A stretch of 30,715 nt of DNA, from assembly GCA_041288095.1 (NCBI GenBank), contig JBGGMJ010000021.1, positions 1-30,715 on the forward strand, given 5' to 3'. This document shows, one piece after another, positions 901-16,766 of the stretch. Positions within the stretch are counted from its first letter, which is position 1. The number at the start of each line of letters is the position of its first letter. Under the pieces are notes generated by a model that saw nothing but the letters and a program-made list of their open reading frames with translations, did not search any database and was not told the DNA's origin. The DNA comes from Myxococcota bacterium (GTDB lineage: Bacteria > Myxococcota > XYA12-FULL-58-9 > JALHOP01). A program made the translations under genes and the position numbers.

Positions 901-3661
901 GGACACGACGGTCAAGACCAACGAGCAGGACTGGCTGAAGACCAACCTCGCGAAGTTCAGCCGCATGCTCCAAGGCCAGAAGGACCTGCTCACCGTCGGT
1001 AAGCTGATCCTCTCGGAGCTCGCGCCCGTCGTCGGCGCCCAACAAGGCGTCTTCTATATCGTCGAGAGCAGCATGGACACCGCGGAGAGCCAGCTGCGCT
1101 TGCTCGCGAGCTACGCCTACCGTTCGCGCAAGAACGTCGACAACGTGTTCAAGCTCGGCGAAGGCCTGGTCGGTCAGTGCGCCTTGGAGAAGGAGAAGAT
1201 CCTCCTCGCCAACGTACCGAACGACTACATCACCGTGTCGAGCGGTCTCGGTGAGTCCGCTCCGGCGAACATCATCGTGCTCCCCGTGCTCTTCGAGTCG
1301 AACGTCAAAGCGGTCATCGAGCTGGCCTCGTTCGAGCGCTTCAGCGTCACCCACTTGGCGTTCCTCGATCAGCTCACCGAGTCGATCGGTATCGTCTTGA
1401 ACACCATCGAAGCGAATATGCGTACGGAAGACCTGCTCAAGCAGTCGCAGTCTCTCGCGCGCGAGCTGCAGTCGCAGCAGATGGAGCTCCAGTCGACGAA
1501 TACGCAGCTCGAGGAGAAAGCAAAGCTGCTCGCCGATCAGAACGCCGAGGTCGAGCGCAAGAACACAGAGGTCGAGCAAGCCCGTCAGGCGCTCGAAGAG
1601 AAGGCGACGCAGCTCGCCCTCACCTCGAAGTACAAGTCCGAGTTCTTGGCGAACATGTCGCACGAGCTGCGCACGCCGCTGAACTCGCTGCTCATCTTGA
1701 GCGACCATCTCTCGAAGAACAACGAGAAGAACCTCACCGAGCGCCAGATGGAGTTCCTCAAGACCATCCACGGCTCGGGTACCGACCTGCTCTCGCTCAT
1801 CAACGACATCCTCGACCTCTCGAAGATCGAGTCGGGTACCGTCGTCGTCGATGTCGGCGATATCGCGATGGTCGATCTCATGGACTACGTCGACCGCACG
1901 TTCCGCCACGTGGCCGACAGCAAGAAGCTGTCGTTCGAGATCGAGCGCGATCTCACGATGCCGAAGATCGTGCAGACCGACGCCAAGCGCCTGCAACAGG
2001 TCTTGAAGAACCTGCTGTCGAACGCCTTCAAGTTCACCGAGCGTGGCCGCGTCAGCTTCAGCGTCAAAGAGGTGAAGGCTGGCTGGTCGACCGAGAACGA
2101 GGCACTCAACAAGGCGAAGGCCGTCGTCGCCTTCAAGGTCTCGGACACGGGCATTGGTATCCCCAACGAGAAGCAGCAGATCATCTTCGAGGCGTTCCAG
2201 CAGGCCGATGGCTCGACCAGCCGCAAGTACGGCGGTACGGGCCTCGGGCTCGCGATCAGTCGCGAGCTGGCGCGCTTGCTCGGCGGCGAAATCCGCCTGC
2301 ACTCGACGCCGGATGTCGGCAGTGAGTTCACGCTGTTCCTGCCGGCCACGTTCATCCAGCAACGGCCGACGCGCAAAACGCTGGAGATCCCGCGCGAAGG
2401 CGGGGCACAGCCGTTGGCGCTACGCGATCCAGAGATGCCGATGCAGCTCATCGAGACCGGGGCGATCGACCCGGCCGATCAGATGGGAGACCGGTCGTTG
2501 CTCATCGTCGAGAACGACGCGAGCTTCGCCAACTATCTGCGCGAAGCAGCGCGCGAGCGCGGCTTCCGTACCCGCGTGGCGCCCCGGGGCGCGCTGGCGG
2601 TGGCCATGGCGCACGACAACCCGCCGGACGCCATCACGCTGGATATCAACCTGGCCGACATGGACGGCTGGCGCGTGCTCGAGCGCTTGAAGAGTCATCC
2701 CGACACGCGTCACATCCCCGTGCACATCATCTCCACCGAGGACGAGCGCGAGCGCGGTCTACGGCTCGGCGCCACCGGGGTCCTAGTGAAGCCGGTCCGC
2801 GAGCGCGCAGTGCTCGACGAGGTTCTCGGCCGCCTCAAGGGAGCGACCGAGCCACATCCTCGCCGTGTGGTGGTGCTGGGAGACGGCGACGCGAAGGTGA
2901 CCCATGCCATCGAGGAGGCCTGTGGTCAGAACATTGGCGTGATCGCCGCGGGTCACGAGCAAGCCCTCGATGTCTTGCACGCCGCCGCCACTGACCTTGT
3001 GGTCGTCGCCAATCTGCACGGTGACGCGGCCGAGCTCGAGCTCGTCGCTCGCATGCGCGCCGATCAAGATCTCGCCGACGTGCCGGTGGTCGCGTACGTG
3101 GACGGGAACCTGACGCGCAAGGGCGAAGGTTACGTGAAGCGCCTCAAGGAAACCGCCATCGTTCGCGAAGCGCGCTCGCTCGAGCGCCTCATCGACGAGA
3201 GCGTGTTGTTCTTGCACCTGCGCCACACGGAGCTACCGGACGAGACGCGCAAGATGCTCGACGCCATGCGCAACTCGCGCACCGTCCTCTCCGGCAAGAA
3301 GGTGCTCATCGTCGACGACGACGTGCGCAACATCTTCGCCCTCGGCACGGTTCTCGAGCCGCACGGCATGGCGCTCAAGGCGGCGGAGAATGGCCGGCAG
3401 GCAATCGAGATCCTGCAGAACGAGCGCGACTTCGACGCCGTTCTCATGGACATTATGATGCCGGAGATGGACGGATACGATACGATGCGGGCGATAAGAA
3501 AGATTGGTCGGTTGCGGTCACTGCCGATCATCGCCCTCACCGCGAAAGCCATGAAGGGAGATCGTGAGAAGTGCCTCGAGGCCGGAGCTTCGGACTACGT
3601 CTCGAAGCCCGTCGATACCGACCAGTTGCTCGGCGTCTTGCGAGCCTGGTTGTACCGTTAA
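2..3661 (+). CDS. Poly-HAMP hybrid sensor histidine kinase (HAMP repeats-GAF-coiled coil-HisKA-HATPase-3 receiver domains), 5'-truncated by the window edge; OsaA/Nik1-like architecture
   Basis: Frame is open from position 2 ([10 protein letters not shown]...). 92-aa tandem HAMP units ([13 protein letters not shown]...WKDLTDNVN), GAF (GEGLVGQCA), H-box [13 protein letters not shown]-box [11 protein letters not shown]1 DTGIG, G2 GGTGLGL, terminal receiver (LIVDDD/LMDIMMP/SKP). Confidence 0.95.
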
Positions 3662-3670
3662 AGGTCTCGT

Positions 3671-5797
3671 ATGGGAGAACCCGAGGACGACATGGCCAAC
3701 GACGAAAGCGCGAGCATCCTGCTCGTCGACGACAGTCCGGAGAAGCTGCTCGCGCTCGAGACCGTGCTCGAGAGCCTGGGCCAACGCTTGGTCCGCGCCA
3801 GCTCCGGCCGTGAGGCGTTGCGCTGCCTGATGGGCGGCGAGTTCGCGGTCATCATCCTCGACATCAACATGCCGGGCATGGACGGCTTCGAAACCGCCGA
3901 GCTCATCCGTCAGCGCAAGAGCTTCGACCAGACGCCGATCATCTTCGTGACCGCGTTCGCCGACGAAATGCACGCGGCGCACGGCTACGAGCTCGGCGCC
4001 GTGGACTTCATCGTCCAGCCCGTGATCCCCGACGTGTTACGCACCAAGGTCGGTGTCTTCGTCGACCTGTTCCGCAAGAATCGCCAGGTGCGCCGTCAAG
4101 CCGAGTCGCTCGAACGGCGCGCGACGCAGCTCCACAAGCTCGCGGCCGCCTCGCTCGCCATCAACCGCTCGTTGACGCTCGAGCAGACACTCACGGTCGT
4201 CGCCGACGCCGCGCGAGAGATCGTCGGCACCGAGATCGCGGTCGCGCAGGTGTCCGCCGACTTGAAGCTCGAGTCGGTCAACGAGGTCGTGTCGCTCGCC
4301 GACGACGGCCGGCACATCGATCCCGAGCGCTGGAACGAAGCATTCGCGAGCCTGTCGCGCAGCGTTCGTGACCTCAACAAGCCACGGCGGATGTCTTCCG
4401 ACGAGCTCGAAGCGCACCTCGCCACCGAAGCGCCCGGGGCCGTCGGCTTTGCCACTGGTGGATGGCTCGCGGCACCCTTCACCAGCCGCGATGGCCGAAA
4501 CATCGGTGTCCTTCACGTCGTGCACAAGCACCAGGGGCCGCTCGTCGATGACGACGAAGCGCTGCTCGTGCAGCTCGCGCAGTTCGCTTCGATCACCGTC
4601 GAGAACTCGCTGCTTACCCGCGAGTCCGAGGTCAACCGCATCAAGGACGAGTTCCTGGCCACCCTCTCGCACGAGCTGCGCACTCCGCTCACCGCGATCA
4701 TGGGTTGGACGCAGCTCCTCCGCGAGCCGCAGGTCGCGACGCAGAAGCTCGGCCACGGCCTCGACGTCATCGACCGCAACACGCGCGCTCAAACCAAGCT
4801 GATCGATGACCTGCTCGACGTGTCACGCATCCGCACCGGCAAGCTGACGATCCAACGCGAGGCGCTGGCCCTGCCGGCCCTGGTCCAGAGCGCCGTCGAA
4901 GCCGCTCGCCCCGCCGTCGCCGGACGCTCGCAGACCTTGAGCCTCGACATCGAGCACGAGGGCCTGTCGGTGTACGCTGACGCGGACCGCTTGCAGCAGG
5001 CGATCGGCAACCTGATTTCGAACGCCATGAAGTTCACCCCCACCGGCGGCCGCATCATGGTGGGCGTGCGCCGGGTCGGCGCCGCGGTACAGCTCTCCGT
5101 GACCGACACGGGCGCCGGCATCACCCGATCCTTCTTGCCTTACGTCTTCGACCGCTTCAGCCAGGCCGACAGCTCGAGCACGCGCGCGCACGGCGGCTTG
5201 GGCTTGGGTCTCACCATCGTCCGCCACATCGTCGAGCTCCATGGTGGCCAAGTGGCGGCCGAGAGCGCCGGCCAGGGGCTTGGCTCGACCTTCACCCTTA
5301 CCTTGCCGATCCTCGAGGTCGGGGGTCGCTCCGAGCGCGAAACGCGGCGCGCGGTCCAAGAGGGCGCGGTCGACCGCGAGACGCTCCAAGGTGTGAGCGT
5401 CCTCGTGGTCGAAGACGAAGTCGACAGCCGCGAGCTCATCACCGCGGTCATCGAGCGCGCCGGCGCCAACGTCACCGCCTGCGGCTCCGTCCCGGAAGCC
5501 TTCCAGTCACTCGAGGGCGGTCTGCCGACGGTCATCGTCAGCGACATCGCCATGCCGGGCTACGACGGGCTCACCTTCATCAAGCGCTTACGCGCACGCC
5601 CGCCCCAGCAAGGCGGTAATGTGCCTGCTATCGCGCTCACCGCCTATGCACGTGAAGAAGATCGCCAGGCGGCCCTCGCCGCCGGCTTCCATCGTCACAT
5701 GTCGAAACCGGTCGAGCCGGCTCGCCTCGTATTCGCCATCGCGGAGCTGGCAAACGGCGGGCCAGGCTTCGAGATCGTGACCTCCTCCGGCGGCTAA
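3671..5797 (+). CDS. Hybrid sensor kinase/response regulator (REC-GAF-HisKA-HATPase-REC)
   Basis: N-terminal receiver (LLVDD, ILDINMPGMDG, LRTKVGVFVDL), GAF-like segment (WLAAPF...IGVLHV), H-box FLATLSHELRTP, NLISNAMKFT, DTGAG, GGLGLGL, C-terminal receiver (VVEDE, SDIAMP, SKP). Alternative start at 3692. Confidence 0.93.
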   Translation: MGEPEDDMANDESASILLVDDSPEKLLALETVLESLGQRLVRASSGREALRCLMGGEFAVIILDINMPGMDGFETAELIRQRKSFDQTPIIFVTAFADEMHAAHGYELGAVDFIVQPVIPDVLRTKVGVFVDLFRKNRQVRRQAESLERRATQLHKLAAASLAINRSLTLEQTLTVVADAAREIVGTEIAVAQVSADLKLESVNEVVSLADDGRHIDPERWNEAFASLSRSVRDLNKPRRMSSDELEAHLATEAPGAVGFATGGWLAAPFTSRDGRNIGVLHVVHKHQGPLVDDDEALLVQLAQFASITVENSLLTRESEVNRIKDEFLATLSHELRTPLTAIMGWTQLLREPQVATQKLGHGLDVIDRNTRAQTKLIDDLLDVSRIRTGKLTIQREALALPALVQSAVEAARPAVAGRSQTLSLDIEHEGLSVYADADRLQQAIGNLISNAMKFTPTGGRIMVGVRRVGAAVQLSVTDTGAGITRSFLPYVFDRFSQADSSSTRAHGGLGLGLTIVRHIVELHGGQVAAESAGQGLGSTFTLTLPILEVGGRSERETRRAVQEGAVDRETLQGVSVLVVEDEVDSRELITAVIERAGANVTACGSVPEAFQSLEGGLPTVIVSDIAMPGYDGLTFIKRLRARPPQQGGNVPAIALTAYAREEDRQAALAAGFHRHMSKPVEPARLVFAIAELANGGPGFEIVTSSGG

Positions 5798-5886: not shown

Positions 5887-6090
5887 ATGACCGCTCAGAT
5901 TACCGGGGGCGTCTCCGCGCCGAAGGCGGGAGCCCCTGTTTCGAACGTCGAAAAAGTGCTTGGCGGCGCCGTCGCGTCAGCAATGGCCGCGTTTCCGGCG
6001 CACTTCGGAGGCCTCGGGAACGCGGTCGCCGCGGCTTGCTGCGAGGTCAACCGCATTCTCGCGGGCGGCTCAGGAGGGAATCGCTCCTGA
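5887..6090 (+). CDS. Small Ala/Gly-rich hypothetical protein (67 aa)
   Basis: GAGGG Shine-Dalgarno at 5875-5879 before ATG 5887. Stop TGA overlaps the probable start of the next gene. No recognised family. Confidence 0.55.
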   Translation: MTAQITGGVSAPKAGAPVSNVEKVLGGAVASAMAAFPAHFGGLGNAVAAACCEVNRILAGGSGGNRS

Positions 6091-6557
6091 ACACAGCTCA
6101 GACCCAGAGCCACAGTCTCGAGCTGCAGGCGATCTTCCTGCAGCGCGGCTCGGATGGACGGCGCCGCTTCACGAACGCGGAGATCCGCCATTTCATGCCC
6201 ATGGCGGTGCTCTGCACGCGCGTCAACCTCAAGCAGTTTCCGGCGCTCAAGCCGATCATGGCGGAGTTCATCCAGCGCTTGGTGCTACCACGGGTGCTCA
6301 CGTCCGAGGCGTTCGCGCGCGCCGTGCACGCGCACTATCGTGCCCATCCGCCAAACCGGGAGCTCGAGCGCCAGTTCTTCGCCTATTGCCGCGAGCACAC
6401 CGTCGCCAAGGGCGAGCTCGATCCCAAACAAGTCGCGAAATACGTCAAGGCGGCCGCGGCCGTCGCCAAGAAGCCGGCGCCTCAGGCGGCCATGGCCCCG
6501 CCCAAGCAGGGCGGCTTGTGGAGCACCATCCGCAACATCGCGCGCAACATGGGCTGA
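6087..6557 (+). CDS. Hypothetical protein (~156 aa) with a C-terminal amphipathic helix; start uncertain (CTG 6087 proposed, TTG 6036 or ATG 6195 possible)
   Basis: Protein-like ORF with GC3-rich codons. GGAGGG at 6073-6078 lies 8 nt before in-frame CTG 6087. Confidence 0.7.
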   Translation: MNTAQTQSHSLELQAIFLQRGSDGRRRFTNAEIRHFMPMAVLCTRVNLKQFPALKPIMAEFIQRLVLPRVLTSEAFARAVHAHYRAHPPNRELERQFFAYCREHTVAKGELDPKQVAKYVKAAAAVAKKPAPQAAMAPPKQGGLWSTIRNIARNMG

Positions 6558-6577: not shown

Positions 6578-9500
6578 CTAGCGTTGCTGATCGCGCTCGA
6601 CCAGCAACGGGAGGCCGGTGGCGATGAACGGCAGCAGCAAGCGCATGCGTTCGCGCCCTTGCGGCGTCGCCGCCGCGTCGGGCGGGAAGGCCGAATCCAG
6701 CACGCGCCGCATGTACGCGATGTCCCCGCCGGACCGTCCCGCGGCCCACTCTTCCATGGCCACCGCGAAGAGCTCCGCCGGATTACGATCGCCGTAGTTA
6801 TGATTGGTGCCGTGGCGCGTGCGGTACACGTGAAGATCGAGCATGCGCGCTTGCATCAGCAGCGCGTGCAAGCGTGGGTCGCCGCGCTCGAGGCCGTGGC
6901 CAGCGACCTCGTGCGTCGTCAGGGTGGGGCCATGCTCGGGGCGGATACCCGGATAGTAGGTGAGCACACCGCCGTTGTACCTCCAGGTGCCGGCGATGGA
7001 GTTGTTGGGCTGACTGAAGTCGATGCGGCCGATCTCACCCGCGGCGCGCGCCGGTAGCTGCTTCACCCAGTCGGCGATCTGCTCGTCGGTTGGCAATCGC
7101 GAAGCATCGTGGCCAGAACGCGACGCAATCGGCACCTCGTGCTCGATGTCGCCGATGCGCACGCGCATGGTTCGGCTGCCGTCAGCAGCGGGCGTTCCCA
7201 GCTCCACCGAACTAGGCCGCGGCAAATCCGCGAAAGCACGCGGCTGGCGGTTCGGCACGCGACGCTCGAAGTCGACGCGGACCTCGTCGATGGTGGCCGG
7301 CCGCAACCGTCCAGCGTCCTCCACGAAGATGGCCTGCGCATGGGGGTCGCTGGTGTCGCGATCGGCGGCGTAGGGACGCTCACTGCGCGCCATGATCAAG
7401 CGCGACGCGTCGTCCCCGGTGTAGCGCGCCATCTGCTCGATGAGGCGCACTGGATCGCCACCGGTTCGCGTCCGCAGCTCGTCGAGCAATGGGCCGCGTC
7501 CCGCCCTCACCTCGTTGGCGAGGTCTTGAGCAAAGCGCGCCTCGTCGCCGGCGAGGGTGCGTGCTCGCCGGAGGTCGGCCATGCTATCGACGAGGCGGCG
7601 CGTGGCAACGTCGTCGGCGCGGGGTGAGCGCAGGGCATCGGGCAAGCGCTCCAAGAACTGCTCCCGGGTCTCGGATTGCGACCAAACGCGATAGCTGCGG
7701 CCATCGTGGACGATGATCGTGCCGCCATCGACGTTGGCGCGCGCGGTGACGCCGGGTGGGCCGATGACGACGCGGGGCGGTGACCCCGGCTCGAGCCGCG
7801 CGACCTGATATTCGGTCTGGCCGCCGCTGAGCTGGCGGCGGACCACGCTGGTCACGCGATCGACGCTGCTCACGACCTCGTAGTGGCGGCCACCGGCTAC
7901 GTATGAGGTGATGCCGGTAGGTCCACTCACCGCGCCCTCGGGATGAACTTCGTTCGATCCCGGGCGGATGATGACAGCGTTGCCTTCGACATCCAGCGCG
8001 GCGGCGGCGCCGCGTCCGTTATCGACGATGCGAAAGTGCTCCGGACCGCGCGCCCCTTGCCGGACGTGAAAGTACTGTCCGATCGAGTTGCCTACACCCA
8101 GGATTGGCCGCGGATCGCCGACTGATGACAACGGGCTCATCCGCAGGGCGCCGCCGGCATCAGGGCTCAACACACCCACCGGCAGACCCTCGGTGTTGAA
8201 GGCGATGGCTCGTCCGTTCTCGCGGACAGTCGTGTAGGCGCGGCCTTCCGGGTCCAGCCAGTAGGCGGTGCCGGGATTGCGCGCTGCAAGCAAGGTCTCG
8301 CGCACCGCCGCGTCGGTATCGGCCGGCATGCGGGCCACGTCGACTTCGGTGCGGCTGCGCTCTGGGATGTCGTCGAGGGTGCGTGCCAGCCGCACGGGCT
8401 CGTCGCCGCCGATACGCGCGCGTTCTTGGTTGAAGTCAGTGCGGCGGTAACCGCGCGCGCTGTAGCGCGAGAACGCGGGCACAAAGCCCTGGAGCATCGC
8501 AGGCTCGACGGCTCCAACGGAACGAACGTAGGGGAGGTTCTGCCCCCCCGCGTTGGTACCGACCGCGAGCGTCCGACCCTCGCCGTCGATGTAGAAGCGC
8601 GTGTTGGTTTCCCGCGACTCGCCCATGTGCCGCAGCGCGCGACCAGTCGTGTCGATCATGCCCTGCTCGGTCATCCAGATGGGGCCCTGTGGTGTTTCAT
8701 GCCGGCCCATCGCCGGTACGCCGTTCCAAAACATGTCACGGACGAGCGGGTCGTCGGGATTAAGGCGTACACGATAGCGGAGGACGTCGCCGTCGGTATC
8801 GACGAGACCACGATGGGCCAGGGCGTGCGCATGCGCCACCTCGTCGGGGGTCGCGCCGGCTGGCACACGCACGTCCAGCCTGCGCGCTAGGCCGTTTCCA
8901 GTCACCACGAGCGGCACGCCGTCGGTGTCGCGCGCCACGTAGACGTGGTCGCGCGGGTCGGAACCGTCGTGGATGCGGCTCATGCGCCCGGGCTGGACCT
9001 CGAGGCTCTCCCAGGTGCCGGCGGTTCTGTCATAGCGGACAACGTGCGGTGGCGAGGCGGGGTCGTCGAGGCTTCGCAGGCCGAGGATGGTCTGTCCGCC
9101 AACGGAGGTCTCGTGCATCGCCGCGAAGCGTCGGTCACCCAGGGTGACGGTAGCCGGAGCGTTGCTCTCGGTCTCACCGATGATCAAACGGCCGTTGGGA
9201 CCGTCGATGTCGACGCGCGAGCCGACGGGCCCGTGGCCGCGCTGGGGCATGCTGTCGCGCCCCACAGCGAGGGGCACGTGGTTTTGGTCGGTGGCGAGGC
9301 CGTCGCGCAGGCGCGCCATGACGTCGCCGGGGCGAGCGCTATAACGCGAGATCAAGTGGTTAGTGCCGCCGAACATGGCGACCATGAGACCGGCCTGACC
9401 GAGGTGCGACAGCACCCGCTGGCGCTCCCGCGACTTCTCGGCGGAGCTGCGGTTGGATGCCTCGATCTCGTAGAGTTGCTGCGCCACCGGGGCAGCGATC

Positions 9501-11980
9501 GCGGCGAGACCTGCCACGGCCACCGGCGTGCCACCGATCGAGACCGCGTTGCGCGTCCACTGGCGCAGAATGAGCTCGCGCATCTCGCCTTCGACGGCGG
9601 CGCGCTGAGCACCGGGCGGCAACGATTGTGCCCGGCCTTGGGCCGCGGCGAAGGCGCGCGCGACATCGTCTTCGAGGCGCGGCGTCAAGCGGCCAAGGTC
9701 CGCCATCGCGGGCGTGAGCAGTGCCCGGGCTCCGGCCCTACCCAGCATGGCCGTCGCCTTGAGCGGCGCGGCGATCGCCAGGGCGTCGAACGCGAGGGAA
9801 ACGCCATTGAGCGCGGTCTCGCCGGTACCCGCGGTCGAGATGCCACCGATGACGTTCCCATCGAAGGCGCCGTGGCGATTGGCGCGCACGTAGTTGCGCC
9901 CCTTCAGCGCCGCGGTGCCGAGGCCTCCGCCGACCAGGGCGCCGATCGCGGCCCCCGGAACGACGCCGATGCCGCCAAGCCAGACGCCGATCGCGGCGCC
10001 CACGGCGGCGCCGGCGGCCATGCCACCGCCCTGGTAGACCATGGCTTCACCGAGGGTCTCGCTCGAGAGCTCGCGTAGCGCCACGCGCAACCCAGCGTCG
10101 TCACTCTGATGACGGTTGAGGAAGCCATCGACGCGCTCCCCGGCCCACGCCACCTCGCTACGCATCCCACGGAGCCGCTCGAGCGTCTCGCGTGCACGCG
10201 CGCCCTGGCTCGATTCGGCGAGCGCCTGCGCCTCGAGCAGGAGCAAGCGGGCTCGATGATCGGGCGTCGCACCCGAGTCGTTCTCTGCGTCCATGCGGAC
10301 GCGGCGCAGCTCATCCGCCGCCGGTCGGCGCTGGTCGTAAGTGCCCGCTCCCGCCGCCAGCTGGAGCTGGACGTTGCCGTATTGCTCACGCACTTCCTGG
10401 ACGAACGCTTGGCGCGTCGACGGATCGGGGATCGCCACTGCGTAGCGCAGCGCCTCTCGCAGCTCGGTCCCAGCCGTCGTCAGGTCACCGCGCATCGCCG
10501 CGTTGCGGGCCGCGATACCTCGGTTCTGCCCCCACAGGACCGGATCCTGCGTGCGCGAGGCGTATTCGTCGAGCAGGCGCAGGGCGCCGCGCGCCGCCGT
10601 GTCCTCGTCGTTCGTGGACGCGGCGGCCGCGATGCGGCTCATGCTGCGAATCATCTCATTGCGCCGCGCTTCCGGAAGACCACGCATGGTCTCGATCAAT
10701 GCGGGCGCGGCGGCGCGGTCGGGCGGTGTGCTGAAGAGATACATGCCGCGCTCGTTCGAGCGCAGCGCGTGGTCGAGGCGCTCCCGCGGCATGCCCGAGG
10801 AGAGCTGGAGTTGGTCGATGTAAGCCTCGCGCGCCTGGGTGAAGTCGCCGCGCCGCAAGTGATGGTCAGCGCGAACCTCGGCGCCTTCGAACGCCAGACG
10901 GTGCCGCAGCGGCTCGGCGTCCTCGGCGCGGATGACTCCGCGCGCGACGAGATCGTCGATGCCGGCACGGCCGCGCTCGATGGTCGCGTGGATGTTGGCG
11001 ACCGCCTGCGCCGCGCGCGTCGATGCTGGAACGCTCCGCGACGGAGGCAGCGGTTGGATGGTGCGCGCCTCGAGCACGGTAAGGTCGACGCTTTGCCTTG
11101 CGAGAGTGCGCTGCAGCTCCGGCGCCAGGTTGGTGTCGGAGATCAACGCATCCAGCTCGCGGCGCGCCTCGGCAAGCGGTACGCGGCCGGTGGTTGGTTG
11201 CGGTCCGGCCACGCGGCGCTCGACCTCGCCCACTTGCGTCGTGAGCCGCGCGAAGCCCGCTTGCACGCGCGCCTCCGCAATCAGATCCGCGGAGGTCATG
11301 AGCAACTGGTCGATCTGAGCGACAGCCTGGCGATTGACTGGATCAGTCGTCGCCCCCCGCGCCAGCTCTTCACGCGAACCGGCGAGGGCGATGGCTTGGG
11401 CTTCCAGCAGCGTCGCGCGCAGCTGCGCGCCCTCGATGGTATGGTCGAGCGTCACCCGAGCACCCTGCCGGGCAATCGCCCCCGCGGGGTCGCCTCCACG
11501 CGCGATGAGCGCCGCGAGGTCGGGATTGCGGCCGGCGAGGAGCGTGTATTGCCCAGCGGTCACCGCCTCGGGTTGCACGGCAAACGCGGTCGCGGCGATG
11601 TCACGCCACGATCGATCACGCGTCAGGGTCGCGCCAACACCAAGAATGGGTGCGCGGTCGTCGACTTCGATGCCCCCGGTCGCGAGCCGCGTGCGCGCAC
11701 CCTCGACCTCGCTCGTCAGGCTGCGCAAGCGGACGGGGTCCGCCGCAGCGGACGTAAAGCGACGCAACACTTCCGGACGGATGGCCGGGGGATCCGGCCG
11801 CACCTCGGTGGCCGGGGGATCGCCGGCCTGCGTCTTGGGCGACGTCTCGACGCGGTCGGCCGGCTCGACCACCTGCGTGGGCCGCTCTTTGGGCAGAGTC
11901 GGGTCGGCGCGCGGCTCGTCGTTCGCGGGCTCGGTACCACGGCGTTCGACAGGTGCAGCTCCGACGCCGGGCAAACCCAT
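6578..11980 (-). CDS. Large (~1800 aa) putative effector/toxin: low-complexity N-terminus, TPR-like helices, glycine-zipper/TM block, beta-rich region, C-terminal zincin-like metallopeptidase
   Basis: Single long ORF (TTG 11986 or ATG 11980). GGGMAAGAAVGAAIGVWLGGIGVVPGAAIGALVGGGLG at ~9915-10032. THEVAGH (HEVAGH at 6896-6913) is followed by YGDRNPAELFA. The ORF is secure; the function is inferred. Confidence 0.75.
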   Translation of the reverse strand: MGLPGVGAAPVERRGTEPANDEPRADPTLPKERPTQVVEPADRVETSPKTQAGDPPATEVRPDPPAIRPEVLRRFTSAAADPVRLRSLTSEVEGARTRLATGGIEVDDRAPILGVGATLTRDRSWRDIAATAFAVQPEAVTAGQYTLLAGRNPDLAALIARGGDPAGAIARQGARVTLDHTIEGAQLRATLLEAQAIALAGSREELARGATTDPVNRQAVAQIDQLLMTSADLIAEARVQAGFARLTTQVGEVERRVAGPQPTTGRVPLAEARRELDALISDTNLAPELQRTLARQSVDLTVLEARTIQPLPPSRSVPASTRAAQAVANIHATIERGRAGIDDLVARGVIRAEDAEPLRHRLAFEGAEVRADHHLRRGDFTQAREAYIDQLQLSSGMPRERLDHALRSNERGMYLFSTPPDRAAAPALIETMRGLPEARRNEMIRSMSRIAAAASTNDEDTAARGALRLLDEYASRTQDPVLWGQNRGIAARNAAMRGDLTTAGTELREALRYAVAIPDPSTRQAFVQEVREQYGNVQLQLAAGAGTYDQRRPAADELRRVRMDAENDSGATPDHRARLLLLEAQALAESSQGARARETLERLRGMRSEVAWAGERVDGFLNRHQSDDAGLRVALRELSSETLGEAMVYQGGGMAAGAAVGAAIGVWLGGIGVVPGAAIGALVGGGLGTAALKGRNYVRANRHGAFDGNVIGGISTAGTGETALNGVSLAFDALAIAAPLKATAMLGRAGARALLTPAMADLGRLTPRLEDDVARAFAAAQGRAQSLPPGAQRAAVEGEMRELILRQWTRNAVSIGGTPVAVAGLAAIAAPVAQQLYEIEASNRSSAEKSRERQRVLSHLGQAGLMVAMFGGTNHLISRYSARPGDVMARLRDGLATDQNHVPLAVGRDSMPQRGHGPVGSRVDIDGPNGRLIIGETESNAPATVTLGDRRFAAMHETSVGGQTILGLRSLDDPASPPHVVRYDRTAGTWESLEVQPGRMSRIHDGSDPRDHVYVARDTDGVPLVVTGNGLARRLDVRVPAGATPDEVAHAHALAHRGLVDTDGDVLRYRVRLNPDDPLVRDMFWNGVPAMGRHETPQGPIWMTEQGMIDTTGRALRHMGESRETNTRFYIDGEGRTLAVGTNAGGQNLPYVRSVGAVEPAMLQGFVPAFSRYSARGYRRTDFNQERARIGGDEPVRLARTLDDIPERSRTEVDVARMPADTDAAVRETLLAARNPGTAYWLDPEGRAYTTVRENGRAIAFNTEGLPVGVLSPDAGGALRMSPLSSVGDPRPILGVGNSIGQYFHVRQGARGPEHFRIVDNGRGAAAALDVEGNAVIIRPGSNEVHPEGAVSGPTGITSYVAGGRHYEVVSSVDRVTSVVRRQLSGGQTEYQVARLEPGSPPRVVIGPPGVTARANVDGGTIIVHDGRSYRVWSQSETREQFLERLPDALRSPRADDVATRRLVDSMADLRRARTLAGDEARFAQDLANEVRAGRGPLLDELRTRTGGDPVRLIEQMARYTGDDASRLIMARSERPYAADRDTSDPHAQAIFVEDAGRLRPATIDEVRVDFERRVPNRQPRAFADLPRPSSVELGTPAADGSRTMRVRIGDIEHEVPIASRSGHDASRLPTDEQIADWVKQLPARAAGEIGRIDFSQPNNSIAGTWRYNGGVLTYYPGIRPEHGPTLTTHEVAGHGLERGDPRLHALLMQARMLDLHVYRTRHGTNHNYGDRNPAELFAVAMEEWAAGRSGGDIAYMRRVLDSAFPPDAAATPQGRERMRLLLPFIATGLPLLVERDQQR

Positions 11981-11989
11981 GCCCAAAGC

Positions 11990-11998
11990 AGCTTAGCA
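11990..11998 (-). promoter_or_regulatory. Candidate extended -10 element for the large gene
   Basis: Minus strand reads TG-C-TAAGCT, 9 nt before ATG 11980; there is no Shine-Dalgarno sequence in between. Confidence 0.35.
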
Positions 11999-12067
11999 CA
12001 GCGCGCGGCCCTGTAGGGCCTTCACCCACCGGCCGCCTCCTGCCCTAGCGGCACACCGGCGCGGTGC

Positions 12068-13567
12068 TTACGGTTCGCTCTCGATCTCGGACTCGTGGAA
12101 GTCCTGGCCATCGAACTTCACCACCACCATGCGATCCTCGATGCGGGTGACGATGCCGACCGGCCGCGTCCACATGGCGTGGACGTTGGTTAGCGTGTCG
12201 CGCATGTAGTCGGTGCGCAGGTCGATGCCTTCGTGCTGGTGTTTGAGGAGCAGCTCGCCGCGGTTCTCGAAGTTGGCGTCGATGACGCTGATGAACGGCT
12301 GGCCGAAGTTCGTGAGCTGGAAGAGGAGCTTCTCCTTGATCGCCTTGAACTCGCGATCGGTGATCTCCCAGTTGCCGCTCTTCTTGTTGTAGCCGTACGT
12401 GAACATCTTCTGCTGGTTCGCGAAGTCGCGCGTCAGGAACTCGTCGATGAAGGTGACGTCGTTGTAGTGGCGACGTACCTCGAAGATCTTCTGACGACCG
12501 AGGCCCGCCTCGGTGTTCCACTCGCGACGCGCCCGCAGGTCGTCGCACTCGTCCCACTCCTTGCCGAAGCGACCCTTGTTCCAGCGGTCCTCGATGTCGC
12601 GAAACAGCTCGATGCCGAGCTTGTAGGGGTTCATCGAGCCCGGCTGCACGCCCATCGTTCCGCTATGGCGGTCAGCGTAGTCGATGACCTCGGAGTCCTC
12701 GAGCGCCTTCTGCGTCATGATGGTCGTGTGCCAGTAGCTGGCCCAGCCTTCGTTGATGACCTTCGTCTGACCCTGCGGCGCGAAGTAATAGGCCTCCTCG
12801 CGGATCATCGCGAGCACGTCTTGCTCCCAGTTCTCGAGCGGGCCGTGCTCCATGACGAACTGCAGCACGTCGCGCTCCGGACGCTCCGGGAACTTCCGCG
12901 ATTGCGCACGCTCTTCGTCGAGGCGCTTCTTTTGCTCCTCGATGAACTCGCGCGGGTTGATGTACTGATTCATGTACGAGCGCTCGACCTTGAGGCGCGG
13001 CACGTCGGGCGATCGATCGTCGCGCTCGAGCTCGTCGGTGCGCTTGTCGGCGCGGCGCTTGATGTACGGCGCCTGGCGGTCGATGAGGTTGTCGATCGAC
13101 AAGCAGCGATCGACGAAGGCTTCGACTTTCTCGAGACCGTAGCGGTCGATGAACCGGCGAATCTTGGTTCCGTGATTCGCCATCGTGTCCATCATCTTGC
13201 GGTTGGTGTGCGCGAAAGCGAAGTTGTTCTTGAAGAAGTCGACGTGCCCGTAGACGTGCGACATGACGAGCTTCTGGTCGACGTCCATGTTCGACGCCAT
13301 GAGGTAGGCGTACGAAGGGTCGTTGTTGATGACCAGCTCGTAGATCTTCGAGAGGCCGTACGAGTAGCTCTTGGCGAGCCGCTCGTACTCCATGCCGAAC
13401 TTCCAGTGCGGATAGCGCGTCGGAAAGCCGCCATACGCCGCGATCATGTTGAGCTCGTCGTACGAAACGACCTCGAAGACCGTGTCGAAGAAATCAAGCC
13501 CGAAATCGACGGCATGGCGGTGGATACGCTCGCGCATCGCCTCGAGGTGGGCTGGTAGGGCTGGCAT
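12068..13567 (-). CDS. spoVR: SpoVR/YcgB family protein
   Basis: Family motifs GFPTRYPHWKFG, SKIYELVINNDPSYAYLM, HVYGHVDFFKNN, YFAPQGQTKVINEGWASYWH, NPYKLG. Confidence 0.95.
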   Translation of the reverse strand: MPALPAHLEAMRERIHRHAVDFGLDFFDTVFEVVSYDELNMIAAYGGFPTRYPHWKFGMEYERLAKSYSYGLSKIYELVINNDPSYAYLMASNMDVDQKLVMSHVYGHVDFFKNNFAFAHTNRKMMDTMANHGTKIRRFIDRYGLEKVEAFVDRCLSIDNLIDRQAPYIKRRADKRTDELERDDRSPDVPRLKVERSYMNQYINPREFIEEQKKRLDEERAQSRKFPERPERDVLQFVMEHGPLENWEQDVLAMIREEAYYFAPQGQTKVINEGWASYWHTTIMTQKALEDSEVIDYADRHSGTMGVQPGSMNPYKLGIELFRDIEDRWNKGRFGKEWDECDDLRARREWNTEAGLGRQKIFEVRRHYNDVTFIDEFLTRDFANQQKMFTYGYNKKSGNWEITDREFKAIKEKLLFQLTNFGQPFISVIDANFENRGELLLKHQHEGIDLRTDYMRDTLTNVHAMWTRPVGIVTRIEDRMVVVKFDGQDFHESEIESEP

Positions 13568-13573
13568 TGGCTC

Positions 13574-13602
13574 AATTTATCGCGGCCAGCCCGGTGCCGC
13601 AA
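13574..13602 (-). promoter_or_regulatory. Candidate sigma70-type promoter giving a leaderless spoVR mRNA
   Basis: Minus strand TTGCGG-N17-TAAATT, then 6 nt, then ATG 13567. Confidence 0.45.
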
Positions 13603-13607
13603 TTGCA
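13592..13607 (+). promoter_or_regulatory. Candidate sigma54 (-24/-12) element facing the annexin-repeat toxin gene
   Basis: CGGTGCCGCAATTGCA is GG-N10-GC with a TTGCA -12 box; the -24 box is imperfect. Confidence 0.3.
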
Positions 13608-13662
13608 GCGGTCCGGAAGGCGTTTCCGATGGCGGATCGAAGTTTCGCCTAGGTACACTCCA

Positions 13663-13678
13663 AGCAAGTCGTATGCCC
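13663..13678 (-). promoter_or_regulatory. Candidate sigma54 (-24/-12) element facing spoVR
   Basis: Minus strand GGGCATACGACTTGCT is GG-N10-GC with a TTGCT -12 box, close to TGGCAC-N5-TTGC. Confidence 0.4.
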
Positions 13679-13761
13679 AAGGCGGCAGCAGTCATTCCCC
13701 CCACCCCTTTCGGAGCGCCCGAGGCCTGCTTACGGGCAGGCTTGCCTCGTGGAGGGTTCCG

Positions 13762-16344
13762 ATGACCGGAGGCGTGACCCGCGCGGGGGCGCCAACCGAA
13801 GCCATCCCCCAGGAGCCGGCCGCCACGGCGCGCGTGACCCGCACCGACGAGGCCGCGATCAGCCCGGTGGAGACGGCCGAGCAAGTACGGCTGCTTCGGG
13901 ACGCCTTCCAGGCGGGGAATCCCGATCGCGTAAAGGACGCGCTGCACGGCTACTCGCGCGCCGACCGTCGCGCCATCGTCAGCGCTTTCGATCGGCTCCC
14001 CGGTAACCAGTCCGAGTACCAGAGCTTCCAGCGCCGCATCGCGCGCTTGGGCCTACCGAACGACAACGATTGGATGACGATCGCGGCGAGCCCCACCGGC
14101 CGCAACGACGCCGTCGCCCGTCTCCACCGTGCCATGGCGAGCGGCAGCGTCGATCGCCAAGAGGTGCTTTCGCTCTACGGCGGCCGGACACGCGCGGAGA
14201 TTACCGCGCTCCATGCCGGCTACCGCGATCGCCACGCTCCCGACATGGATGTCGAGGCGGAGATCGCCCGGCGGTTCGGACGCACCCAGCAGCACGACCT
14301 CGCGGCGGCGCGGCTCGGACGCGATGTGCGCCGACCCGAGCATCGCACCGCGGCGGCGCTCGCCGACACCACCCAGGTTTCTGGCGCCTTCGACGGGCGC
14401 GCACGCATGCTCGGCGAGGTCCTGCAGAACAACCAGATCGACGCGGTGAGACGCGCCTACCAAGAGATGCTGCCCGGGCGCTCCTTCGACACGGACATGC
14501 TGAGCGACGTCCGCATCAATCAGACCTGGTCCGGCCGAGCCTCACGCGCCCGCATCCAAGCAGCACTCAATGGCGACCGCCTCGACTACGTGTCGCAAAC
14601 CGCGCTCTTCCTCGCCCGCGGCGAGAACTACATCTCCGAGGCCGACGCTCGGCCGGCCTTCGGCATGGTGAACGGGCGCGATCTCGCCTGGGCGGACGTC
14701 GAAGCGCGGCTACGCAACGACACCGGCGGCAGCATCACCACGGCGCTGCAGGCGCGCTACACCTCGGGCGAAACGCGCGCGTTGCTCGATCAGGTCATGC
14801 GGCCCGGTGCGGCGCCGGCGACAATCGCGAACCAAACAGAGCAGCCGTCGGTTCGTCTTGCCGCGGTCGAGGCCGCGCTCAACGAAGGCAACTATCTCAC
14901 CTCGTACCGGCGGCGCGCCGCGTTCAGCGAGCTGCTGGCGGGGATTCCGGTGGCCGACCGCGCGGCCATCGCCGACGCGGGCCGCGCCCGACCCGACAGC
15001 CGCGGCATCGAAGATCAGATTCGCGCGCGTTTCTCGGGCATCGAGGCCGAGCGCGCTTTAGCGGACTGGCGGGGTAACATCGATGCCATCGACATGTTGC
15101 GCTTCGCGAGCCGCGGCCAAGCGACGCCACAGGAGCTGACGCGCGCCATCGCCTCGACGAGTCTCGAGCGCCGTGCCCAGCTCGAAGCGGGCTTCAACGA
15201 GCGTCATGCCGACGAGCGCAGCGGCGGCCGCACGCCGTTCCAGACGGCGGTCGATCGCCTGCGTGCCGCCGATGGCGAGGCCTCGCGCAACCTCGACCTC
15301 CAGCTCAACCTTTCCCGCCTCGGCACGCCCGAAGGACTGCGCGAGGCGCAAACGCGCGCCCAAGAGCTGCTGCGCGAAGGCCGGGGTGAATGGGACAGCT
15401 TCCGGCGCTTCGCCATGGACACGCTGAAGTGGAGCGGTCCACAGCTCGATGCCTCGGGACGTGAGCTCTTCACCAACATCCGCAGAGCCGAGCGCGAGGG
15501 TCGGTTGCGTGAGGGTCAGCCGGTGCCGGCCGAGATCGAAACCGCGTACCGCCAGGTGGTGGCGGATTACCAACGCTACCTGCGCGACCAGGGGCGGCTT
15601 GGCGAAGCCGCGGCCGAAGTGGCGCTTTTCGCGGGCGGTACGCTGCTCAGTATCGCGAGCGGTGGCACCGCAACCGGCTTGATCTTGGCCGCGGGAGCCT
15701 CAGGTGGCCTCTACGTCACCACACGCGCCGCGGTTAGCCCGGTCTACGCGGACAGCAGCGCCGGCCGCCTGGTGACCGACGCTGGTACCGCGGCTATCGG
15801 CATGGCCATCCCCATCGCGGGCCGCCTTGGACCCGCGGTGACCTCGGTCTTCAGCCGTTATCCAACACGGACCGTATTGACGTTCAGCAACTCCACCGAG
15901 CAAGCCGCCTGGGCGGCGGCGCACATCCCCGGCGCGACCCCGCAGCAGATGGAAGCACTCATCGCCGCGACCTACTCGCGCAACTCGGGCTTCGTCGTCG
16001 GCGGCAGCCGCATCCGCGGCGACTTTCACGGGGCGAGTGACCTCGACGTCGGCTTCACGGCGCTCAGCAAACGCCAAGCAGAGCGTGTCATAGCGGAGCA
16101 CAACAAGCTTGCGGCGGCCGGCGACCTGCCCCTGCGGCTCGAGACCTACGCCATCGTGCCTGGCCGCGCGAGCGCGAACGTGCCGGAGATCATGCGCGTC
16201 GAAGAGTTCTTCCAGCGCACCGGCGTGCGGGCCCCCGGCGACCCGCGCGCGGGTCAGTCGTACGTGCCATCCGGTTCGGTCTCGTTCTGGCGCGACGCGG
16301 ATGGTATCTACCGCGTCGAGATTATCCCGCCAGGCGCTCTATGA
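13762..16344 (+). CDS. Putative polymorphic toxin (860 aa): annexin-like repeats, hydrophobic hairpin, C-terminal Pol-beta-superfamily nucleotidyltransferase domain
   Basis: GGAGGG RBS at 13751-13756 before ATG 13762, preferred to the ORF-track TTG 13567. Annexin-like DAVARLHRAMASGSVDRQEVLSLYGGRTRAEITALHAGY. TM-like VALFAGGTLLSIASGGTATGLILAAGASGGLYV. NTase signature FVVGGSRIRGDFHGASDLDV at 15991-16050. Confidence 0.75.
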   Translation: MTGGVTRAGAPTEAIPQEPAATARVTRTDEAAISPVETAEQVRLLRDAFQAGNPDRVKDALHGYSRADRRAIVSAFDRLPGNQSEYQSFQRRIARLGLPNDNDWMTIAASPTGRNDAVARLHRAMASGSVDRQEVLSLYGGRTRAEITALHAGYRDRHAPDMDVEAEIARRFGRTQQHDLAAARLGRDVRRPEHRTAAALADTTQVSGAFDGRARMLGEVLQNNQIDAVRRAYQEMLPGRSFDTDMLSDVRINQTWSGRASRARIQAALNGDRLDYVSQTALFLARGENYISEADARPAFGMVNGRDLAWADVEARLRNDTGGSITTALQARYTSGETRALLDQVMRPGAAPATIANQTEQPSVRLAAVEAALNEGNYLTSYRRRAAFSELLAGIPVADRAAIADAGRARPDSRGIEDQIRARFSGIEAERALADWRGNIDAIDMLRFASRGQATPQELTRAIASTSLERRAQLEAGFNERHADERSGGRTPFQTAVDRLRAADGEASRNLDLQLNLSRLGTPEGLREAQTRAQELLREGRGEWDSFRRFAMDTLKWSGPQLDASGRELFTNIRRAEREGRLREGQPVPAEIETAYRQVVADYQRYLRDQGRLGEAAAEVALFAGGTLLSIASGGTATGLILAAGASGGLYVTTRAAVSPVYADSSAGRLVTDAGTAAIGMAIPIAGRLGPAVTSVFSRYPTRTVLTFSNSTEQAAWAAAHIPGATPQQMEALIAATYSRNSGFVVGGSRIRGDFHGASDLDVGFTALSKRQAERVIAEHNKLAAAGDLPLRLETYAIVPGRASANVPEIMRVEEFFQRTGVRAPGDPRAGQSYVPSGSVSFWRDADGIYRVEIIPPGAL

Positions 16345-16766
16345 TCACGATTCGAATCTCCGGCGAGCTTGCCGCGGCCGACGCCGTGACGTTCAACGAA
16401 CGCGCGATGGGCGAGGTGGGACAGGGAGCGCCAACGATGGTGCTGACCGCGCCCTATCAGAGCTTCGCCGAGCGCTTCGCGCCAATCTACGCCGAGGCCA
16501 TCACCGAGCTCGAAACCGACGACCGCGTCACCGGGAAATTTTCACCGCCGTACGCGGGCGCGACGCGTTACCCGAGCCTCGCGGAGCTCTTCGCGTTGGC
16601 CGACTCCGAACGTATGGAGATGATCGGCGCGTTCTTCGCGGTCGACATTCTGCGTCTCTTTCTTCCGGAGACAGCCGCGGGCGCACGTTGGGCCGTACGG
16701 TCCGTCGACAGCGTGGCCAAGAAGGGCGACCTGCTCGAGCTGCGCGGCGTCGTCGAGGAGATCTAA
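16341..16766 (+). CDS. Hypothetical protein (141 aa), candidate cognate immunity protein
   Basis: ATGA overlap with the upstream toxin-like gene. Small, net acidic, no signal peptide and no histidine, so not an RxxxxH HEPN RNase. Confidence 0.7.
   Translation: MITIRISGELAAADAVTFNERAMGEVGQGAPTMVLTAPYQSFAERFAPIYAEAITELETDDRVTGKFSPPYAGATRYPSLAELFALADSERMEMIGAFFAVDILRLFLPETAAGARWAVRSVDSVAKKGDLLELRGVVEEI

Follow-up and report, generated by a model that had tools for sequence, protein, structure and literature searches.

Lysine depletion in two large cysteine-free proteins from a Myxococcota genome and what may lie behind it

Introduction

Toxins that carry very little lysine are known, and so are bacterial toxins with annexin modules. 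Both come to mind in a stretch of 30,715 nucleotides from a Myxococcota bacterium (contig JBGGMJ010000021.1 of assembly GCA_041288095.1; the whole stretch is called the window below). Here two genes, one for a protein of 1802 amino acids (aa) and the other for a protein of 860 aa, lie on either side of a gene for SpoVR. The two proteins have almost no lysine, no cysteine at all, and a great deal of arginine. I argue that GC pressure fails to explain this and, much more tentatively, that the avoidance of lysine is selected in a class of toxin-type proteins to which both belong.

The polymorphic toxins with annexin accessory domains described by Zhang, Aravind and co-workers in 2012 (PMC3482391) resemble the 860-aa protein in several respects: a variable C-terminal toxin domain that rides on many carriers, an annexin module upstream of it, a small open reading frame (ORF) after the toxin gene, and a delta-proteobacterial lineage of the myxobacterial type (Haliangium). 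They differ in having an N-terminal metallopeptidase domain of the Photorhabdus virulence cassette (PVC) or extracellular contractile injection system (eCIS) kind and a single annexin domain, whereas the protein here has about 8 repeats and no trafficking domain that could be found. The small ORF here is no more than a candidate immunity gene. A purge of lysine and cysteine is not mentioned in the parts of that account on which I draw.

The A chains of AB toxins routed through the endoplasmic reticulum (ER), such as ricin A, cholera toxin A1 and pertussis toxin S1, share with the proteins here an extreme bias toward arginine over lysine that goes beyond the GC content of their genes. As the relevant parts of a review have it (PMC13696103), only the translocated A chain is depleted in these toxins, they are exported by Sec, and they have disulfides or B subunits. 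Here, in contrast, the giants are depleted as a whole, they are free of cysteine, and Pfam found no B-type domain in them. Another parallel is offered by the lysine deserts that Szulc et al. (2023, PMC10665810) describe in actinobacteria and their phages, where, again, long lysine-free regions are frequent and the proteome is rich in GC. Deserts covering at least half of the length make up 9-35% in four actinobacteria, by the portion of that study used here, and 13.7% of ORFs in the present genome. The difference is that no Pup ligase was found here and that the strongest deserts are in exported-looking and toxin-type proteins. Finally, the C-terminal domain of the 860-aa protein has the G-S ... 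D-x-D motif of the polymerase-beta-type nucleotidyltransferase toxins and antitoxins (NTP_transf_2; MntA/MenT-type), and 18 of 67 homologues match NTP_transf_2, but the domain in the window itself scores below both cut-offs.

No description of lysine-purged polymorphic toxins was found in the literature searched; the per-taxon desert tables of PMC10665810 lay outside its scope and may cover related taxa. Among the papers listed, those bearing on low lysine content in secreted proteins deal only with ER-routed toxins or with unrelated topics. Whether selection or GC bias underlies lysine depletion in bacteria is still debated, according to the sections of the review drawn on here (PMC13696103).

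Lysine content of the two proteins

The window is one contig (C21) of a draft genome of 5.85 Mb, with 66% GC, 212 contigs and 90% completeness. The proteome is my own crude call of 3963 ORFs, filtered by GC content at each codon position, taken from the longest starts and covering 83% of the genome; its median lysine content is 3.1%. Signal peptides and lipoproteins were assigned by a heuristic predictor of my own, also crude. The genes at issue are these:

6578..11986, minus strand: gene for the 1802-aa lysine-poor, arginine-rich, cysteine-free protein (P0001), accessory as judged by synteny and characterized by its composition
12068-13567, minus strand: SpoVR gene, between the other two
13762..16344, plus strand: gene for the 860-aa lysine-poor, arginine-rich, cysteine-free protein (P0004), in a frame that is open back to a TTG at 13567 (925 aa)

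The larger protein has 6 lysines (positions 33, 51, 695, 743, 851 and 1642), 215 arginines and no cysteine, and the smaller has 4 lysines, 105 arginines and no cysteine. The 860-aa form is that of the record and starts at M66 of the 925-aa form (P0002), which begins at the first TTG of the same frame and has 5 lysines, 115 arginines and no cysteine. The initial annotation had counted lysine and cysteine in both giants by hand, and its count was exact. It was right as well that the neighbors are rich in lysine, for 28 lysines occur among the 499 aa of SpoVR and 68 among the 1211 aa of the hybrid histidine kinase at 26-3661.

The longest lysine-free runs measure 790 aa in the larger protein, 44% of its length, and 497 aa in the smaller (58%), ranking 5 and 33 among the 3963 ORFs. 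Both are lysine deserts as Szulc et al. define them (150 aa or more without lysine, or half of the protein or more). Among the 2331 ORFs of at least 300 aa, they lie at the 3rd and 6th percentile in lysine content and at the 1.3rd and 2.6th in K/(K+R). Basic residues as such are not lacking: K+R comes to 12.3% and 13.0% in the pair, against about 10.6% for the summed genome medians. The depletion runs through the whole length of the 860-aa protein, with 2 lysines in the N-terminal 693 residues and 2 in the C-terminal domain.

Base composition and selection

GC pressure fails to explain the depletion of lysine. From the position-specific base frequencies of each gene, one would expect lysine at 1.64% in the larger protein and 1.78% in the smaller, and it is observed at 0.33% and 0.54%. 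Observed over expected is thus 0.20 and 0.30, where the genome median is 1.52, a departure far beyond chance. Asparagine, whose codons also begin with AA, makes up 2.55% and 2.59% of the two proteins; the genome median is 2.45%. K/(K+N) is 0.115 and 0.172 (median 0.57), while the analogous ratios E/(E+D) and Q/(Q+H) are normal. Isoleucine and methionine are also typical of the genome in both proteins, and the sum F+Y+M+I+N is at the 21st and 44th percentile. The GC content at third codon positions (GC3) is 0.82 in both giant genes, compared to 0.90 in the gene for SpoVR and 0.86 in that for the kinase; over the three codon positions of the 1802-aa gene it is 0.74/0.54/0.82.

Comparison with the orthologue in a genome of the same genus (G002) indicates that the 860-aa gene is under purifying selection. 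The ratio of nonsynonymous to synonymous substitution rates (dN/dS) is 0.123 and approaches 1 only in the first 35 residues; the corresponding values are 0.031 for SpoVR and 0.089 for the kinase. The dN of the 860-aa gene is about 10 times that of SpoVR. Three of the 4 lysines are invariant across 3 orthologues, and the variable arginine columns among the orthologues show 2 exchanges of arginine with lysine and 9 of arginine with glutamine. The same comparison (locus L008 of G002) gives a dS of 0.95 for the 860-aa gene, about twice that of spoVR (0.39) and the kinase gene (0.45), which suggests either a different history or a weaker codon bias.

Lysine-poor ORFs across the genome

The pair is extreme but part of a populated tail. 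Lysine is below 0.6% in 148 of the 2331 ORFs of at least 300 aa, and broken down by length, in 67 of 1302 (300-500 aa), 39 of 748 (500-800 aa), 24 of 212 (800-1200 aa) and 18 of 69 (at least 1200 aa). K/(K+R) of the long ORFs is distributed continuously, without a separate mode. Cysteine is absent from 17 of the 281 ORFs of at least 800 aa, and in this set its absence is associated with lysine below 0.6% (8/9/34/230, Fisher p 0.001).

Sorted by eye, the ORFs that reach 800 aa and have less than 0.6% lysine, 42 in all, fell into two groups. Members of one have lipobox or signal-peptide N-termini, contain cysteine, are rich in glycine, threonine and serine, and have 4-6% arginine. Those of the other have no signal peptide, N-termini rich in proline and arginine, 10-13% arginine and 0-3 cysteines; both proteins of the window are among them. 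A working definition of this second group (at least 500 aa, lysine below 0.7%, arginine at least 9%, cysteine at most 0.35%, no signal peptide) picks out 26 ORFs in the genome, referred to below as the class. They are clustered, forming 3 adjacent pairs where 0.31 would be expected (permutation, p 0.002), and a hydropathy scan finds a central hydrophobic segment rich in glycine and alanine in many of them. They are enriched not only in arginine but also in glutamine, asparagine, proline and threonine, which is not a pattern of GC drift. A recent conversion of lysine to arginine by way of AGG and AGA codons was considered and is ruled out: the two codons supply 2.5% of the arginine codons of the class, less than the 4.0% that they supply across all ORFs of the genome.

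The initial annotation had proposed to test whether there is a distinct class of large orphan proteins low in lysine, with N-terminal features in common. The class is there, some 26 ORFs without signal peptides, rich in arginine, nearly free of cysteine and mostly without a Pfam family, but no common N-terminal motif was found. Pairwise matches among the N-termini of the 26 are weak and inconsistent (best E 0.004), and what the N-termini share is a composition rich in proline and arginine: in the first 80 residues proline is 10.1% and lysine 0.8%, compared to 6.4% and 3.0% in other signal-less ORFs. No Pfam family exceeds its cut-off in 15 of the 16 signal-less lysine-poor ORFs of at least 800 aa, nor in 13 of 20 that are shorter (311-498 aa) and were taken from 67 such ORFs. 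A search for a recurrent accessory gene beside members of the class produced one pair only, a 173-aa ORF at 6036-6557 and its paralogue near a member on contig C98.

Lysine depletion extends to proteins that look as though they are exported. Among ORFs of at least 800 aa, the median lysine content is 0.85% in the predicted lipoproteins, where 17 of 46 lie below 0.6%, and 3.3% in those without a signal peptide, where 22 of 180 do. The lysine-poor lipoproteins are low in arginine (median 5.0%). So far as the crude predictor can be trusted, these lipoprotein-like ORFs support a link between lysine depletion and export. Nor is the possibility, raised with the first reading of the window, that lysine below 0.5% is simply ordinary in long non-secreted proteins of this genome cleanly borne out: low lysine is common among long ORFs, but mainly among those that look exported or are orphans.

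One family of predicted lipoproteins, 1200-1450 aa long, is spread over contigs C212, C107, C57, C190 and C81 (for example C212:56830-61125). Its members have an N-terminal pattern C-S-V-D-L ... V-(I/V)-T-C ... E-C-P, contain cysteine and have 2-7 lysines.

Lysine in homologues and paralogues

A full HMMER scan of 1.84 billion representative sequences with the 860-aa protein gave 133 phmmer matches, and lysine content was compared over 135 sequences (132 plus the three orthologues). Their median is 4.8%, and values below 1% occur only in the 3 orthologues and in P0011. Two orthologues, at 82% and 76% identity to the 860-aa protein, have 8 and 3 lysines and no cysteine, so the scarcity is kept within the genus, as the initial annotation had proposed to check. 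Homologous ORFs of the genus have in general 0.15-0.9% lysine and 0-2 cysteines. Those that match modules of the 1802-aa protein, pieces of 1053, 1374, 761 and 1370 aa, hold 3, 7, 6 and 2 lysines. A homologue of these modules from another family of the same order has 56 lysines (3.8%) and 11 cysteines in 1459 aa, at a GC3 of 0.84.

The most direct comparison comes from an annexin-bearing paralogue in the same genome, on contig C112 and called by that name here. An alignment of some 780 columns, at 39% identity, sets 34 lysines in C112 against 4 and 5 in two homologues from the same genus; the residue most often found opposite the lysines of C112 is arginine (9-10 times). Lysine amounts to 0.42%, 0.67% and 0.89% in the same-genus homologues of C112, none of which has cysteine, and to 2.6%, 5.5% and 8.7% in distant ones, whose GC3 is 0.96, 0.94 and 0.89. 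By these comparisons the depletion is lineage-specific, restricted to the genus. They stand, with the ratios of observed to expected lysine, behind the earlier statement that high GC content alone is insufficient, which can be upheld: homologues keep their lysine at high GC3, and so does C112 in alignment.

A further lysine-poor ORF of 1533 aa, in a second genome of the genus (G001:C7, locus L007), resembles the 1802-aa protein in its N-terminal region and C112 in its C-terminal domain. It is direct evidence that modules are shuffled among these genes. Another annexin-family paralogue, 37% identical to C112 (G000:C92:14767-16236, minus strand), is interrupted by an in-frame TAA and may be a pseudogene or two genes.

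The 860-aa protein

The features of the 860-aa gene and the ORF that overlaps its end are as follows, all on the plus strand:

13864..15681, plus strand: annexin-like all-helical repeat region, residues ~35-640 (phmmer links, AlphaFold2, Foldseek)
15643..15699, plus strand: hydrophobic segment rich in glycine, alanine and threonine at the junction of the repeats with the C-terminal domain (hydropathy; conserved in 3 orthologues)
15841..16341, plus strand: C-terminal polymerase-beta-type nucleotidyltransferase toxin-like domain, residues 694-860 (phmmer, Pfam of homologues)
16000..16056, plus strand: GGSRIRGDFHGASDLDVGF, the G-S ... D-x-D nucleotidyltransferase motif (alignment)
16341..16766, plus strand: candidate immunity gene, an ORF of 141 aa that overlaps the 860-aa gene at its stop codon (ORF call)

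Annexin repeats had been read from the sequence by eye, and both transitive homology and fold bear them out. The Pfam annexin profile (PF00191) does not match the protein itself, even at E up to 5, but phmmer ties its N-terminal 640 residues to proteins that have true Pfam annexin repeats: the profile matches the homologues P0065, P0117 and P0134 and the paralogue C112 with E of 4.8e-16, 5.9e-12, 2.4e-53 and 3.7e-8. An AlphaFold2 model of residues 1-640 consists entirely of short helices, with a predicted local distance difference test score (pLDDT) of 72.2. In a Foldseek search of the PDB with this model, annexins make up 48 of the 49 entries listed among the top 50, at probabilities of 0.99-1.00 and a best E of 5e-5. 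The global template modeling (TM) score to PDB annexins is only 0.17-0.30, so the annexin-like repeats, of which there are about 8, are packed differently. In the one repeat compared, the consensus of the family is GxGTD and the protein has SGSVD; GxGT ... D/E is what I take to be the type II calcium-binding loop of annexins.

Residues ~694-860 are what nearly all of the 133 phmmer matches cover, in proteins that range from 66 to 2105 aa and usually have the matching part at their C-terminus. The 67 homologues of at least 300 aa have, besides NTP_transf_2 (18), the Pfam families RHS (8), PT-VENN (3), annexin (3), PT-HINT (2), PAAR (2) and eCIS_core (2), and one each of Fil_haemagg, VgrG OB, DUF6861 and HopA1, the last an effector domain on an annexin-bearing homologue. 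Rhs, PT-VENN, PAAR and the other carriers lie upstream of the toxin-like domain in these proteins. The same toxin-like domain ends a 3668-aa ORF of another family (genome G005). The G, S, R, D and D of GGSRIRGDFHGASDLDVGF are nearly invariant in the 67, and the catalytic pattern G-[GS]-x(9-13)-D-x-[DE] is present. The domain of the 860-aa protein itself falls below cut-off in both profiles, with 11.9 bits against 21 for Pfam NTP_transf_2 and 13.7 against 60 for NCBIfam MntA.

The initial annotation had placed both giants in a secreted effector class. For the 860-aa protein, the occurrence of its C-terminal domain on many toxin carriers supports an effector or toxin nature; the signs of secretion, a signal peptide or a trafficking domain, were not found. 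The 141-aa ORF matches no Pfam family and has no homologue in the genome or in the compared loci beyond an orthologous fragment. A likeness of it to the ORF downstream of the toxin domain in G005 was looked for and rejected, as BLASTP gave no alignment.

The 1802-aa protein and its locus

Within the 1802-aa gene the following can be distinguished:

11687..11986, minus strand: N-terminal ~100 residues, rich in proline, arginine and glutamate, probably disordered, without signal peptide and with 2 of the 6 lysines (sequence, crude predictor)
9905..10060, minus strand: hydrophobic "glycine zipper" rich in glycine and alanine, residues 643-694 (partial DUF6861 match, hydropathy)
9482..9547, minus strand: second hydrophobic segment, residues 814-835 (hydropathy scan)
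6581..8248, minus strand: C-terminal module, residues 1247-1802, ending in a hydrophobic tail (BLASTP, alignment)
6896..6913, minus strand: HEVAGH (HExxGH) motif, invariant in 4 aligned homologues

Matches to this protein are modular and partial, and occur in 3 genomes of the same genus. DUF6861 is matched with 37.7 bits against a cut-off of 28, over profile positions 34-85 of 194 only, which is the glycine-zipper part. Inside that segment lies a tandem direct repeat of 42-45 nucleotides, 74% identical (D1; 9927-10013, minus strand), so the zipper has arisen in part by internal duplication. An atlas search gave no usable match to residues 60-900.

The C-terminal module aligns with a paralogue on contig C87 (BLASTP, 27% identity over 559 aa, E 9e-27) and is also present in large ORFs of two genomes of the genus. 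HE[VI][AT]GH and a glutamate downstream are invariant in 4 homologues. HExxGH is presumably the signature of M49-like zinc metallopeptidases, and the motif is a possible zinc-peptidase site, to be taken as a lead only. Leads from a language model are weak (ATLF and Peptidase_M90, scores of 0.88-0.89). A profile of the module has no match in the PDB at E up to 5, nor does phmmer find any for the whole protein there. The AlphaFold2 model, built on a 4-sequence alignment, has a mean pLDDT of 49 and values of 25-50 over the HExxGH part, too low to be of use.

The gene is missing from the collinear locus of G002. The two loci differ by a clean insertion or deletion of 5.5 kb (6578-12067 of the window against 5698-6448 of L008) between a small conserved ORF and spoVR, and no direct or inverted repeats were seen flanking its boundaries. 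The 173-aa ORF mentioned above (6036-6557, plus strand) is convergent with the 1802-aa gene and matches only DUF2063, weakly (E 0.08); its paralogue on C98, 45% identical over 150 aa, is about 1.8 kb from the lysine-poor giant there. The ORF is present in the locus of G002 that lacks the 1802-aa gene and so is not tied to it.

Why lysine might be avoided

I propose, with a confidence that stops somewhat short of even, that the avoidance of lysine (and cysteine) is selected in a genus-specific class of delivered toxin-type proteins. The proteins of both genes are modular, of toxin type, and lack a Sec signal. The 860-aa protein consists, in order, of annexin-like repeats, a hydrophobic segment rich in glycine and alanine, and a polymerase-beta-type nucleotidyltransferase domain. 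In the 1802-aa protein a probably disordered N-terminus and a helical region come first; a DUF6861-type glycine zipper and a beta-rich middle follow, and the HExxGH module forms the C-terminus. Low lysine, high arginine and the near or complete absence of cysteine are the common signature of the ~26 ORFs and their relatives in the genus, and would be a trait selected in proteins that act outside the cytoplasm of the producer. Replacing lysine mainly by arginine would keep the charge and dispose of epsilon-amino groups, which are potential sites of lysine-directed proteolysis, tagging and chemical modification. Removing cysteine would keep disulfides from forming in a chain that has to be exported and delivered.

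The composition, the class and its restriction to the genus, purifying selection, the toxin-type architecture and the failure of GC pressure I count as shown; export itself, the route it would take, and the agent that would make lysine costly are all things I infer. As to the route, the genome has a single export gate of the FHIPEP (FlhA/SctV) type (G000:C31:3284-5302, locus L029) and no matches to flagellin or to rod and hook families, and a gate without such genes points to a non-flagellar system like type III. In this it resembles the needle-less type III-like system of Myxococcus, as far as the excerpted description of that system goes (PMC10849154). One may go further and suppose that the lysine-purged, cysteine-free giants are the cargo of a contact-dependent killing apparatus in this predatory lineage, with the needle-less, non-flagellar type III-like system as one candidate, and that the purge counters lysine-directed destruction or tagging in or around the prey. 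This fuller scenario I regard as a long shot.

A number of results weigh against selected avoidance in delivered proteins. Neither protein has a trafficking domain in Pfam or a signal peptide. The genome, 90% complete, yielded no TssC, phage-type sheath or VirB4. (Its lack of eCIS_core is uninformative, since no control genome matched either, as are 7 trypsin-family matches with respect to a protease of its own.) No lysine-specific protease was identified; the M35 lysine-specific peptidase was not found, though no control genome matched it. Lysine deserts are commonplace in this genome: 782 of 3581 ORFs (21.8%) have a stretch of 150 aa or more without lysine. The other 7 of the 20 shorter lysine-poor ORFs belong to ordinary families: subtilase, DUF4832/DUF4874, SLT_2, HisKA/receiver, Metallophos and DUF726. 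And C112, of the same architecture and in the same genome, keeps 3.7% lysine, so avoidance is not obligatory for a protein of this type.

Might the depletion not be adaptive at all? In fast-evolving proteins built like repeats or scaffolds, GC-biased mutation could strip away those lysines that are not required, and arginine codons that are 96-97% CGN would rarely revert to lysine. The genome's GC content of 66%, the continuous K/(K+R), the frequency of lysine-free runs despite the lack of a detectable Pup ligase, the few exchanges of arginine with lysine (2, against 9 with glutamine) and a dN ten times that of SpoVR all fit such a process, and GC bias is an alternative that the review itself raises in the passages I used (PMC13696103). 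It is too much to expect, however, that mutation pressure would take lysine down to 0.2-0.3 of what the genes' own base composition predicts and leave asparagine, isoleucine and methionine typical of the genome, with glutamine and asparagine enriched in the class. The giants' GC3 is below that of their lysine-rich neighbors (0.82 against 0.86-0.90), dN/dS is 0.12, and homologues at a GC3 of 0.94-0.96 retain 2.6-5.5% lysine, as the paralogue in this very genome retains 3.7%. I consider the non-adaptive account unlikely. Another possibility is that arginine is what is needed and lysine is merely displaced, guanidinium-rich surfaces serving to bind anionic lipids or envelopes and to promote self-translocation, or to be recognized by an export machine. 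K+R is indeed raised in both proteins, and many members of the class have central glycine-zipper or hydrophobic segments; a domain-specific bias in the arginine and lysine of translocated toxin chains has long been noted (London and Luongo 1989, as summarized in part of PMC13696103). The lysine-poor lipoproteins are low in arginine, though, so the common element is loss of lysine, not gain of arginine, and annexin-bearing homologues elsewhere function with normal lysine. This makes displacement by arginine rather improbable.

The initial annotation had leaned toward tagging and a eukaryotic target. Evasion of Pup is very unlikely, as the genome has no match to Pup_ligase (PF03136), which was found in the control, Corynebacterium. 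Evasion of ubiquitin would mean that the proteins are injected into eukaryotic cells, perhaps amoebae or fungi, where the lack of lysine limits ubiquitination and degradation by the proteasome, as has been proposed for the ricin A chain, cholera toxin A1 and pertussis toxin S1. The paradigm of lysine-poor toxins is established, on the evidence of the review sections cited (PMC13696103). Annexins have a membrane-binding fold that is found mainly in eukaryotes, one annexin-bearing homologue has the HopA1 effector domain, and a non-flagellar FHIPEP gate is at hand. Still, the window and genome offer no evidence of a eukaryotic host, and depletion affects whole proteins of 860-1800 aa rather than a catalytic chain. 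Predicted lipoproteins are likewise depleted. The relatives of the toxin domain ride on Rhs, PAAR, VgrG, CdiA-type and PT-VENN/HINT carriers, and the gene overlaps at its stop codon with a small ORF. Rhs, PAAR, VgrG and CdiA-type carriers, and a small ORF placed in that way, are typical of systems that bacteria use against bacteria. Annexin modules in bacterial polymorphic toxins, moreover, have already been described with no eukaryotic target implied, and are read as accessories for breaching membranes, in the portion of that work drawn on here (PMC3482391). The step to a eukaryotic target therefore lacks positive evidence, and ubiquitin evasion is in my judgment improbable.

Significance

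Selected avoidance of lysine, if that is what it is, can be approached in this lineage through paired comparisons within one protein family and one genus (34 lysines against 4-5, at the same GC content and with no Pup ligase found). Such pairs separate selection from GC bias better than surveys across phyla do. Composition may also help to find, at little computational cost, giant toxins that have escaped annotation in uncultured predatory bacteria. Should the purge prove protective, it would imply an undescribed lysine-directed hazard at the interface of predator and prey; and should the giants be cargo in the way supposed above, they would represent a counterpart, directed at bacterial prey, of the trick by which ER-routed toxins evade ubiquitin.

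Other features of the window

The left part of the window is occupied by two hybrid histidine kinase genes in tandem, at 26-3661 and 3671-5797 (plus strand), with 5.6% and 2.1% lysine in their products. The first carries GAF, HisKA and HATPase domains together with three HAMP matches and two receivers; the second comprises receiver, GAF, HisKA, HATPase and receiver.

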